A stretch of DNA of 64,000 nt from Candidatus Bathyarchaeota archaeon (lineage in GTDB: Archaea > Thermoproteota > Bathyarchaeia > Bathyarchaeales > DTEX01), in the NCBI GenBank assembly GCA_963714275.1, contig CAVQNT010000005.1, positions 64,001 to 128,000 on the forward strand. Direction: 5' to 3'. Each line of letters opens with the position of its first letter. The first letter of the stretch is position 1. Position numbers and translations under genes: made by a program. Below, in pieces: positions 12,184 to 54,870 of this stretch. The notes beneath the pieces are model-generated. The model saw only the letters and a program-made list of their open reading frames with translations. It made no database searches and was not told the DNA's origin.

Positions 12184-12277
12184 TGGTGCGGCCGCCGAGA
12201 TTTGAACCCGGGTTGTCGGCTGTCCTCTCTTCAGCAAATGGGAGGCCGGCGTCCTAACCAAACTAGACTACGGCCGC
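12184..12277 (-). tRNA. tRNA-Gly(CCC) with ~17-nt intron at 37/38 (12222-12238) and encoded CCA
   Basis: GCGGCCG acceptor stem, CT-CCC-A|intron|A loop, GGTTCAAATC T-arm, ends ACCA; BHB is relaxed. Confidence 0.88.
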
Positions 12278-12509: not shown

Positions 12510-14334
12510 ATGTGTGGAATATTCGGTTGCGCGTTAAAGAACGGAAAGGCTGCTCCCCTAATTCATGCTGCCCTAAAAAGGCTCGAATACAGAGGATACG
12601 ACTCTGTCGGCGAAGCTACCATTCAAAATGGTGTTCTCTACATAAAGAAAGACCAAGGAAAAATTGACGATGTTCACAAAGCCATTGACTTAGACAACCT
12701 GCCAGGCAACATAGGAATCGGGCATACAAGATGGGCTACGCACGGAGCTCCCTACCAAGTTAATGCACATCCGCACACTGACTGCGAAAACAAGATCGCT
12801 GTTGTTCACAACGGCATAATTGAGAATTTCTCTGCATTAAGAAAGGAACTGGAAGGTTTAGGACACGAATTCAAGTCTAAGACTGACACCGAGGTTATCC
12901 CGCACCTTATTGAAGAAAACATGAAGAAGGGGATGTCACTCGTTGAAGCAGTCCGCGACTCATTGAAAAGGCTTAACGGTTCTTATGCCATTGCAGTCTT
13001 ATCAAACATTGAACCTGATAAGATTGTTGTCGCTAGAAACGAGAGCCCGCTTGTCATTGGCGTCGGTGAAGAAGCAACCTATTGTGCATCAGATATTACA
13101 GCTTTCCTTCCCCTGACAAACAGAACGGTGATACTCGAAAACGGCGAATTAGGCATACTAGAAGCTGACAAGTACGAGATTTGGAATATTGACGACTGGA
13201 AGCCAGTAAAAAGAGAACCGGAACAGGTTACTTGGACCGTGGAAATGGCTCAGAAGCAAGGTTATCCTCACTTTATGATTAAGGAGATTTATGAACAGCC
13301 AAGATGCTTGAGGGACACTCTTAGGCTGCAGGACTTGTACCTCGACCTTATGGCTACGTTTCTGGACCGAGCTGGAGAAGTGTTTCTCGGTAGCTGCAGG
13401 AACCTCTTATCATGCTTGCCTAGCGGCCTCGTACATGTTTTCAGATCTTGCTTTCTTGGCGACTCATCCAGTTATTGCGTCTGAGTTCATTGAACAGGAA
13501 GGGATGGCGATTAACATCAACAGCACAATCCTCGCTGTGAGCCAATCAGGCGAAACTGCTGATACGCTGGCTGCTGTGGATTATGCTCGAAACCGAGCTG
13601 CCACAATATTGGGATTGACGAACGCCGTTGGTTCAACTTTAACCAGAATCTCAAGAGTATACATAGTTCAGCAATCAGGTCCCGAGATCGGCGTCGCAGC
13701 GACAAAGACATTTACGTCTCAGATGTCAGTGCTTGCGCAACTCGCCTTAAGAGTCTCGAAGATTCGGGGCAAAATCGGGCACCGACAGATAGAGGAGCTT
13801 GAAAAAAGCGTCAGCCAGATTCCTGACATAGTTGAGGCAACGATCAAGAAAAACGAACCGAAGGTTCTAGAAGTTGTCAAGAAACTTAAGAAAAAGCCAG
13901 TCTTCTTCTTTCTAGGCAGGGGGATAAGCTCAGCGACAGCGCAAGAAGCCAGACTTAAGATCATGGAGATCGCCTACGTTCCCTCAATAGCCTATCCTGC
14001 GGGAGAAAGCAAGCATGGTCCCATAAGCCTTGTGGAACCTGGGTTTCCCGTGGTGTTCGTGTGTCCTAGGGATGAGACACGCAAGACGATAGTTGGGAAC
14101 ATAATGGAAATGAAGGCGCGGGGAGCCTCAATAATCTCCGTCATCGAAGAAGGAGATGAGGAAATCAAAAGCCTGTCAGACGAGTATTTCGAGATACCCG
14201 GAAGCCTGCCTGAAATACTGACGCCGATTGCCTTCATTGTACCCTTACAGCAGCTTGCCTATTACATGGCTGTGGAAAAAGGGTTAAACCCCGACATGCC
14301 GCGGAACCTCGCAAAATCCGTCACAGTAAAATGA
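12510..14334 (+). CDS. glmS: Glutamine-fructose-6-phosphate transaminase (frameshift near 13389)
   Basis: MCGIFG, RGYDS, GHTRWATHG, SQSGETADT, PRNLAKSVT. Confidence 0.96.
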
Positions 14335-14505: not shown

Positions 14506-15213
14506 TTGAACAATCAGTGGGAAAACCTTATACAAGACCTCATAAGAAGTGGCATACTTAAAACTCCACAGGTCATCAAAGCGATGAAGTTGGTGCCAAG
14601 GTGCCTTTTTCTGTCCGAAAACGACAAGGCGTGCGCGGCTATTGATACTCCGCTTCCAATCAGCTCGGGGCAAACGGTTTCTGCGCCACTTGGCTGACCT
14701 TAAAGATCAGCTGGGCGAGACATGGTTTCGATAATGAACGAAGCCTTGGAGCTTGAGACTGGACATACTGTTCTGGAGGTCGGAACAGGTTGTGGATGGC
14801 ACGCTTCAACCGTCGCGGAGATCGTGGCGCCAAGCGACATGCCTAAAGAAAAATGGGGTCACGTTTACACAGTTGAAATTGTTTCAAAACTGGCTGAGTC
14901 CGCAAAAAACAATATTACCAAGACTGGTTACGGCGAACGGGTCACAGTTGTCTGCCAAGACGGTTCTGAAGGTTACCACGATAAGGCTCCGTTCGACAGG
15001 ATTTATGTGACTGCTGCTGCGCCTTATGTTCCTCCTCCGCTCAAGGATCAGCTAAAACAAGACGGCGTCATGGTTATTCCAGTGGGTGCGCCGGGATTCT
15101 TTCAGACTCTTCTTCGACTAAGGAAGGTTGAAGGTCAATTCTCAGAGGAAGATCTTGGAGGTGTAGCGTTTGTTCCCCTGGTTGGAAAGCACGGTCATAA
15201 ACTTTTGTGGTGA
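14506..15213 (+). CDS. pcm: Protein-L-isoaspartate O-methyltransferase interrupted by a 30-nt BHB intron (exons 14506-14689 and 14720-15213, ~225 aa spliced)
   Basis: VPR-LF, GQTVSAP(H)MV, VLEVGTGCGW, APFDRIYVTAA, FVPL; removing 14690-14719 restores the CAC His codon. Confidence 0.93.
14690..14719 (+). other. Archaeal BHB-type mRNA intron in pcm
   Basis: CGCC-AC^T...GGCG-AG^A: 4-bp helix CGCC/GGCG, two 3-nt bulges, intron hairpin TGGCTGA/TCAGCTG, in-frame TGA. Confidence 0.88.
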
Positions 15214-17320: not shown

Positions 17321-17431
17321 GCCGGGGTAGCCTAGCTTGGTTTGGGCGCCAGACTCATAATCTGGAGAACGCTTAGGGTCAGAAACAACCTTTGCGCCCA
17401 GAAGTCGCGGGTTCGAATCCCGCCTCCGGCA
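17321..17431 (+). tRNA. tRNA-Met(CAT), probably elongator, with 36-nt intron in the variable loop (45/46; 17368-17403)
   Basis: CCAGA-CTCATAA-TCTGG anticodon arm; splice motif CTGG-AG^A...CCAG-AA^G; splicing gives variable loop AGGTC and an intact T-arm. Confidence 0.9.
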
Positions 17432-54779: not shown

Positions 54780-54870
54780 GCCTCGGTGGCTTAGCGGTTA
54801 GAGCAACAGCCTTGTATCCTCAAAAAAGAAAGAAAGTTGTGGATCGCGGGTTCAAATCCCGCCCGGGGCT
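54780..54870 (+). tRNA. tRNA-Thr(TGT) with 18-nt intron at 37/38 (54817-54834)
   Basis: GCCTCGG/CCGGGGC acceptor stem, U73, ACAGC-CT-TGT-A|A-GTTGT, GGTTCAAATCCC. Confidence 0.9.

Follow-up and report, generated by a model that had tools for sequence, protein, structure and literature searches.

A putative bulge-helix-bulge intron in the SAPHM codons of the protein-repair gene pcm of Bathyarchaeia

What is the 30-nt insert that splits the protein-repair gene pcm of a Bathyarchaeia genome within the His codon of its SAPHM motif? The gene, which encodes protein-L-isoaspartate O-methyltransferase (PIMT; family PF01135), lies at 14506..15213 (+) of a 64,000-nucleotide stretch of DNA from a Candidatus Bathyarchaeota archaeon, referred to here as the window (G000:C5:64001-128000 of a 2.64-Mb, 10-contig genome). 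A model that saw only the letters and their open reading frames (ORFs) had proposed that the insert at 14690..14719 is an intron of the tRNA type with a bulge-helix-bulge (BHB) structure, cut by the splicing endonuclease EndA. This sequence-only reading had also suggested that expression of the repair enzyme depends on the tRNA-splicing machinery, possibly as a regulatory switch, and that the lineage may hold more such introns. Comparison with relatives points to an endonuclease-spliced BHB intron within the pcm coding sequence as the best explanation, with a probability of about 0.9.

The anatomy of the locus argues for a single interrupted gene. Translation of the upstream piece from 14506 ends at a TGA inside the insert, a TAA follows in the same frame, and the downstream ORF (14722..15213) shares the frame of the upstream piece. 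The N-terminal piece matches PF01135 over profile positions 3-59 (E 6.4e-10, 39.6 bits, cut-off 20.3) and the C-terminal piece over positions 61-209 (E 2.1e-38, 132.7 bits, same cut-off), and the one position missing between them is the His of SAPHM. The whole gene matches positions 3-209 at 4.3e-50 with two stops inside, and the motif is complete only once the 30 nt are removed. Both exons align to intact PIMTs, and a tblastn alignment with an intact relative begins at residue 8. This is the sole true pcm of the genome; the next six PF01135 matches, none better than 6e-10, are weak and partial and belong to other methyltransferases. Sequence, ORFs and profile pieces thus agree on the clean in-frame insert with a TGA that had first been described, to which the TAA is to be added.

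The evidence that carries the argument comes from the homologous junctions of relatives. These were pooled into 112 distinct rows, and the analysis was anchored on both ends of the insert so that variation in loop length cannot misalign them. Locus L030, with a true insert of 32 nt, was mis-parsed by a relaxed pattern and left out, which gives 111 junctions. All 111 keep the same geometry: a central helix of 4 bp, one 3-nt bulge on each strand and an intron hairpin. Each bulge lies 3′ of its own central-helix strand, in agreement with the arrangement described in PMC4090602. The pairs of the central helix are formed in 98-100% of the junctions; G-C is replaced by A-U through changes on both sides in 13 (GCA CCA with GGTG), and G.U occurs in 4. 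The intron hairpin stem (helix h′) has seven pairs in the window, two of them G.U, and up to 6-7 pair types per position across the set; the motif asks for at least 2 Watson-Crick pairs in h′.

In an alignment of 85 sequences made with MAFFT, 88.6% of the cells are paired, versus 22-42% when the 3′ partners are slid by 1-3 columns, and the covariation score is 0.45 versus at most 0.18 when slid. In 500 shuffles of this alignment, the observed values for paired cells, for cells with a two-sided change and for covariation are never reached; those for the counts of pairs and of pair types are reached by 31 and 59 of the 500. Run unguided, RNAalifold predicts the 4-bp helix, a 3-nt bulge and the h′ hairpin. 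The helices and bulges that the sequence-only reading had placed in the window are therefore all present and shared by the relatives, and the alignment of pcm genes that it had called for does contain variable inserts with compensatory changes.

The coding sequence around the insert leads to the same reading. By the published rule, each bulge is cut behind its second base, which follows from the first two anticodon bases belonging to the central helix (PMC4090602). Cut in this way, the junction codon would be CAC in 110 of the 111 cases and CAT in the remaining one, and thus always His, as in the A-P-H-M-V product originally predicted. The same position is His in 20 of 22 intron-less genes and Ser in the other two. 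Furthermore, the Ala-Pro codons that form the exon half of the central helix are limited in intron-bearing genes to GCG CCA (89), GCA CCA (13) and GCG CCT (9). Because only these three codon pairs occur with the intron versus 11 different pairs in 21 intron-less genes, the exon half of the helix is frozen by a constraint at the RNA level. The coordinates of the predicted elements are given in Table 1.

Table 1. Positions of the pcm exons, the putative intron and the predicted elements of its BHB structure in the window.
Feature	Position	Strand	Remarks
pcm exon 1	14506..14689	+	~61 codons + C of the His codon; start TTG 14506 provisional; ORF 14506..14697, PF01135
Putative BHB intron, 30 nt	14690..14719	+	in-frame TGA 14695-14697 and TAA 14701-14703; homologous introns 23-46 nt in 111 distinct junctions
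pcm exon 2	14720..15213	+	last two bases (AC) of the His codon, followed by Met; stop 15211-15213; PF01135
Central helix H, 5′ strand CGCC (exon-1 Ala-Pro codons)	14684..14687	+	pairs with 14714-14717
Bulge 1, 3 nt, A C / T	14688..14690	+	predicted 5′ splice site 14689/14690; [A/T]C then N in 111/111
Intron helix h′, 5′ strand TGGCTGA	14691..14697	+	first six pairs 93-99% paired among relatives
Intron loop	14698..14706	+	length and sequence vary among relatives (alignment)
Intron helix h′, 3′ strand TCAGCTG	14707..14713	+	covariation and RNAalifold
Central helix H, 3′ strand GGCG, intronic	14714..14717	+	covariation and RNAalifold
Bulge 2, 3 nt, A G / A	14718..14720	+	predicted 3′ splice site 14719/14720; AN then A in 111/111
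Outer exon-exon helix h, 5′ strand TG	14682..14683	+	pairs with C14721-A14722; 2 pairs here, 1 in most relatives
Outer helix h, 3′ strand CA	14721..14722	+	junction comparison

The insert is widespread among relatives of the window's genome. In a sample of 61 genomes from the same order, pcm was found in 55, and inspection of all 55 junctions places an insert in the same codon in 52; the remaining three, all of family f6, have an uninterrupted SAPHM. A phylum-wide sample of 161 genomes contains pcm in 118. Here the insert occurs in all 13 checked genomes of the window's order and is absent from two further genomes of that order (G041, G204), as well as from all five genomes of two other families of the same class. 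Four families from other classes carry it too, in 14 genomes altogether: f20, f22 (8/8), f33 and f37. One further match (G065) lies at a contig edge, where the junction cannot be judged, and the remaining 83 genomes have full-length uninterrupted pcm matches according to the search table, seven of them checked by sequence. Among 80 named Bathyarchaeia loci, which overlap to some extent with the sampled genomes, 74 have the insert and six do not.

The length of the insert is also informative. In 78 of the 111 junctions it is no multiple of 3, and the other 33 inserts all have in-frame stops. No junction thus leaves the frame intact, and the insert cannot be a translated insertion. Upstream of it, at least 61 codons of the exon-1 frame are open in each of the 139 loci that are not cut by the locus end. 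In family f1, the multiple-of-3 introns carry an in-frame stop within their first three codons, supplied by the 5′ strand of the hairpin (..GCTGA, ..GCTAA, ..GTTGA, ..CTAG; columns 14-21 of the 85-sequence alignment). Such an early stop may have been selected as a quick end to translation of unspliced mRNA, or it may merely be inherited. One f33 genome encodes a second, divergent pcm paralog (L130; G128:C9:19200-20100) with ISCPHSY in place of SAPHM. Its interruption was considered as a copy of the same intron and rejected, as it lies elsewhere in the gene, is 66 nt long with two stops, is flanked by a duplicated segment coding for YRDIVMVLG and has no convincing BHB.

From the window sequence alone, the BHB at 14690..14719 does not stand above chance; comparison with relatives makes it far above chance. 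The minimum free energy (MFE) of the window sequence is −20.7 kcal/mol (z −2.09), and 5 of 200 shuffled sequences are equally stable. A first genome-wide scan for BHBs combined with ORF merging returned 934 candidates and was too noisy to use, and a codon-usage filter was dropped because it wrongly discarded the pcm intron itself. A strict scan found 168 sites of BHB geometry that merge two ORFs versus 192-211 in six wrong-geometry controls. A BHB-like configuration can thus arise by chance somewhere in the genome, and the strict scan, which required an h′ of at least 6 bp and would miss cases with 4 bp such as cbf5 (see below), gives no genome-wide excess of BHB introns in mRNAs.

That the insert might be an assembly artefact had been raised from the start, and the metagenomic data speak against it. 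In an independent metagenome run (X2), a 652-nt contig spans 14450-14778, intron included, with 0 differences. A divergent strain seen in runs X1 and X2 has the insert with changes in the loop and with an improvement from G.U to A-U at 14692. No DNA record that skips 14690-14719 was found in four DNA runs. The pcm insert is not an assembly artefact.

The same genome encodes the enzymes that such an intron would need. Two EndA paralogs are present at separate loci, in the regions of G000 C6:521817-522071 and C2:182722-182976. The first (185 aa) is closest to 3p1z_B, 3ajv_B and 2cv8_A (E 1e-40 to 1e-42), which we take to be catalytic subunits of crenarchaeal heterotetramers, and retains the Tyr, His and Lys of the motifs expected in such an enzyme. 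The second (189 aa) matches NCBIfam beta-subunit models weakly and, when aligned to 1a79_A, has Leu and Ile/Ala in place of a Tyr and a His that are presumably the catalytic residues. EndA of this genome is accordingly predicted to have an (alpha-beta)2 arrangement of one catalytic and one non-catalytic paralog. The available text of PMC5829648 names (alpha-beta)2 and epsilon2 as the only endonuclease types that cut non-canonical introns. An RtcB ligase is encoded as well (E 4.9e-178). As a rough indication only, ARAGORN reports introns in 12 of 39 tRNAs genome-wide. Within the window, Rfam marks three tRNA genes of 91-111 nt, all of which would contain introns by their length, at 12187-12277 (-), 17321-17431 (+) and 54780-54870 (+). 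A hand check for a BHB in one of the window's tRNA genes was ambiguous owing to A-rich sequence and was dropped.

A second gene of this genome, cbf5 (G000:C2:623452-624435 (-)), carries a putative intron of the same kind and serves as an internal positive control. It has a 28-nt insert at TIGR00425 profile position 70 (locus L172 ~2249-2276) with the geometry seen in pcm, formed by a helix CCTT/AAGG, bulges AGA and ATA and a 4-bp hairpin. Once the 28 nt are removed, G|AT forms the Asp codon of GGTLDPK. Of 31 loci examined from the order, 29 have the insert, which measures 18-40 nt there and shows covariation, and a split at profile position 70 recurs in many families across the phylum. This suggests a much wider spread of the known cbf5 intron through the phylum than emerged from the cultured species surveyed in 2009. 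The expectation of further introns in the lineage is thus borne out by cbf5 and not by the genome-wide scan for split genes. Two other observations concern cbf5. In this genome, the gene also shows a 1-nt frameshift apart from the insert, close to profile position 170 (GTYIRS / LCHDVG; L172 ~1953-1965, G000:C2 near 623904-623916), which is probably an assembly or sequencing indel. In two relatives (G044:C66:1639-4203 and G045:C11:292017-294374), a ~1.5-kb insertion at profile position ~170 leaves one open frame, of 873 and 797 aa, and looks like an intein or similar in-frame element.

From the anatomy, its conservation and covariation, the restored codon and the enzyme genes, we infer cleavage, ligation and a mature protein as follows. 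In the pre-mRNA, the CGCC of the Ala-Pro codons would pair with the GGCG near the 3′ end of the intron, giving a 4-bp helix that borders on a 3-nt bulge in each strand, on the 7-bp hairpin of the intron and on an exon-exon helix of very few pairs. A tRNA-splicing endonuclease of the heterotetramer type would cut after the second base of each bulge, and RtcB would ligate the exons so that C and AC form the His codon of SAPHM (A-P-H-M-V). The product would be a normal PIMT of ~225 residues. Unspliced mRNA would yield no more than the first ~63 residues as a truncated peptide and perhaps a C-terminal piece that lacks its N-terminus.

Several observations weigh against this mechanism. The exon-side helix h, which the sequence-only reading had already called short, is weak. 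A G-C pair (G of GCG with C of CAC) is found in 110 of 111 junctions and a second pair, U-A, in 42%, and the helix is not predicted by RNAalifold. The strict hBHBh′ motif asks for two or more Watson-Crick pairs in helix h (PMC7714728). The window has G14683-C14721 and T14682-A14722, of which only the G-C is fixed among the junctions, and most relatives therefore have a relaxed 3′ site of the HBh′ type. The predicted 5′ splice site thus has a textbook context and the 3′ site, because of the weak exon-side helix, a relaxed, HBh′-like one, which calls for an endonuclease of broad specificity; that specificity is assumed here from the subunit type. Moreover, the MFE fold of the window sequence pairs the AGA of the 3′ bulge with UCU instead of leaving it free. 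Some internal initiation is possible at the ATG directly after the intron, which is preceded by GGCGA/GGTGA. A search of sequencing runs for the locus turned up no RNA run containing it, and two RNA runs shared next to none of its sequence words. The protein record points in the same direction. Protein collections were queried with the read-through translation, with X at the two stops, and matches of 200 aa or more were compared with exon 2 of all loci. All listed matches at least 75% identical to pcm are exon-2-only calls of 158-172 aa, named PIMT or ‘partial’. Among the full-length proteins found, identity does not exceed 62% to the query or 87.7% to exon 2 of any intron-bearing locus, and these proteins correspond to intron-less lineages. 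No assembled spliced transcript was found among the protein-collection matches.

Four other explanations were weighed, and all of them fail because they leave the exact BHB geometry, the covariation of the Ala-Pro codons and the invariant His codon unexplained. The one that survives best takes pcm as a split gene, in which a ~63-aa peptide ending soon after SAP and a 163-aa protein starting from the Met of SAPHM form a two-chain PIMT, the hairpin and GGCGA/GGTGA serving re-initiation. In all junctions the insert is followed by an ATG, the codon of the conserved Met, and GGCG/GGTG and A stand 3 nt upstream of this ATG. The sequence resembles a Shine-Dalgarno core, although 3 nt is a short distance between a ribosome-binding site and the ATG. 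Public gene callers also call the 163-aa piece as a gene. A split gene gives no reason, however, for features common to all 111 junctions, namely the exact 4-bp helix, the exact 3-nt bulges and the frozen Ala-Pro codons, which covary with the intron. The invariant C before the insert and AC/AT after it always spell His, a residue that would be lost from both chains, and in the cbf5 gene of this genome the same geometry gives back the Asp codon of GGTLDP. A two-chain PIMT is therefore considered very unlikely.

Even less probable is that EndA cuts the BHB and the exons mostly remain unjoined, so that the site would serve mRNA decay or down-regulation and pcm would be largely silenced, as for yeast TSEN on some mRNAs. 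Cleavage of the EndA type without ligation does occur in yeast (PMC10485636). Yet both pcm exons are open and conserved across more than 100 lineages, the junction codon, which is relevant only if the exons are joined, is always His, and RtcB is present. Translational recoding, either by stop read-through or by ribosome bypass of the 30 nt, which is known from phage T4 gene 60, is suggested by an insert that is short, in frame in the window and folded into a stable hairpin, but it is scarcely credible given that 78 of the 111 homologous inserts are not multiples of 3, that no take-off and landing codons match (CCA C.. versus ..AC ATG), and that read-through would have to recode two different stops (TGA, TAA) and add 10 unrelated residues to the active-site motif. 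As improbable is a decaying pseudogene or assembly artefact with a random 30-bp insertion, which might be suspected from other broken genes that the sequence-only reading saw in the window and from the one frameshifted gene seen in the assembly, cbf5, outside the window, and which is refuted by comparative data, namely a split at the same site in 52 of 55 genomes of the order and 14 of other classes, with covariation and with both exons intact, and an independent metagenome contig identical over the insert. Recoding and decay are thus contradicted by insert lengths and conservation as well, and an endonuclease-spliced intron remains the preferred reading.

If so, the pcm intron appears to be old, being common to the whole Bathyarchaeia order and to four families of other classes. 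Its history was followed on a tree of 132 distinct exon-2 proteins, from which L029 and L030 were left out for length, along with identical duplicates and the L130 paralog; the root of this tree is not established. Intron presence requires at least 7 changes on the tree, 2 of them forced by strongly supported branches. Intron-less genes are nested within intron-bearing clades in family f6, in L109, in L077, in L092 with L101, and in L073 with L088. The simplest reading is one old gain followed by several precise losses, although neither root nor direction is established. Gain with lineage-specific losses has likewise been proposed for the cbf5 intron (PMC2738675).

Because it has been lost repeatedly and precisely, the intron is probably dispensable and not an indispensable regulator. 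Nothing was found in favour of the regulatory switch suggested by the sequence-only reading, and for the pcm intron the role of a tolerated passenger is likelier than that of a regulator. The probable reason for its persistence is that the invariant block of catalytic-motif codons freezes the exon half of the BHB. A broader proposal would see in pcm and cbf5 the two remnants of an ancient set of endonuclease-spliced introns that the protein genes of the TACK/Thermoproteota ancestor contained, kept only where invariant catalytic-motif codons (SAP|HM, GTL|DP) freeze the exon half, with the pcm intron acting as a checkpoint or switch that ties protein repair to the EndA/RtcB splicing and repair system. 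This combination is regarded as unlikely.

Upstream of pcm, an ORF at 13435-14334 (+) encodes two SIS domains, resembling the C-terminal half of GlmS, without a glutaminase domain in the same ORF; this may be a frameshifted gene.

The consequences of a pcm intron are practical as well as evolutionary. Since all listed protein matches at least 75% identical are exon-2 fragments, PIMT is systematically mis-annotated in Bathyarchaeia and some other Thermoproteota, and pseudogene and completeness statistics of their metagenome-assembled genomes are slightly wrong as a result. With more than 100 versions, covariation, length variation and several precise losses, the intron also provides a natural data set on the gain, retention and loss of introns in prokaryotic protein genes.

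Within what is known of archaeal mRNA splicing, pcm adds a host gene to a short list. According to the available text of PMC7714728, cbf5 was the only additional BHB intron reported before the case in the 5′ untranslated region (UTR) of HVO_1309. That of PMC10485636 names only cbf5 and the 5′ UTR of HVO_1309 as archaeal mRNAs spliced by the tRNA endonuclease and deems more of them likely. Both agree with the place that the sequence-only reading gave to cbf5 as the main known case. No publication on a pcm intron or on mRNA introns of Bathyarchaeia was found in open-access papers and bioRxiv, searched without supplements. On present evidence, pcm would be a new host gene for a known intron type and only the second with the intron in its coding sequence.

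The closest counterpart is the cbf5 intron of Crenarchaeota (Watanabe et al., 2002; Yokobori et al., 2009, PMC2738675), a short BHB intron in a coding sequence that is cut by the tRNA-splicing endonuclease. As with pcm, it belongs to lineages with an (alpha-beta)2 EndA, has a relaxed motif, has been mis-annotated as two ORFs or ignored, and shows lineage-specific losses (PMC2738675). The hosts differ, pcm encoding a protein-repair methyltransferase and cbf5 an RNA pseudouridine synthase, and so do the ranges, which are one Bathyarchaeia order and four families of other classes for pcm and, in the available text of PMC2738675, Desulfurococcales and Sulfolobales for cbf5. Furthermore, splicing has been demonstrated experimentally for cbf5 and is predicted for pcm. 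HVO_1309 of Haloferax volcanii (Schwarz et al., 2020, PMC7714728) resembles pcm as an EndA substrate in an mRNA instead of a tRNA or rRNA. Unlike pcm, its intron lies in the 5′ UTR, its host is a euryarchaeon with an alpha2-type enzyme, and it restores no codon (PMC7714728).

In structure, the pcm intron is close to the non-canonical HBh′ introns of tRNAs (Marck and Grosjean, 2003, cited in PMC4090602), which share the 4-bp central helix, the 3-nt bulges, the cut positions and a weak or missing exon-side helix. These introns likewise rely on broad-specificity (alpha-beta)2 or epsilon2 endonucleases (PMC5829648). The pcm intron differs from them in its mRNA host and in that the exon half of the motif is supplied by codons and not by a tRNA stem. 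In eukaryotes, IRE1-dependent splicing of HAC1/XBP1 is also the removal of a short mRNA intron by a non-spliceosomal enzyme, with joining by tRNA ligase or RtcB and a change of frame or product. Unlike the splicing proposed for pcm, it employs another endonuclease and another recognition structure, and its regulation by stress has been demonstrated.

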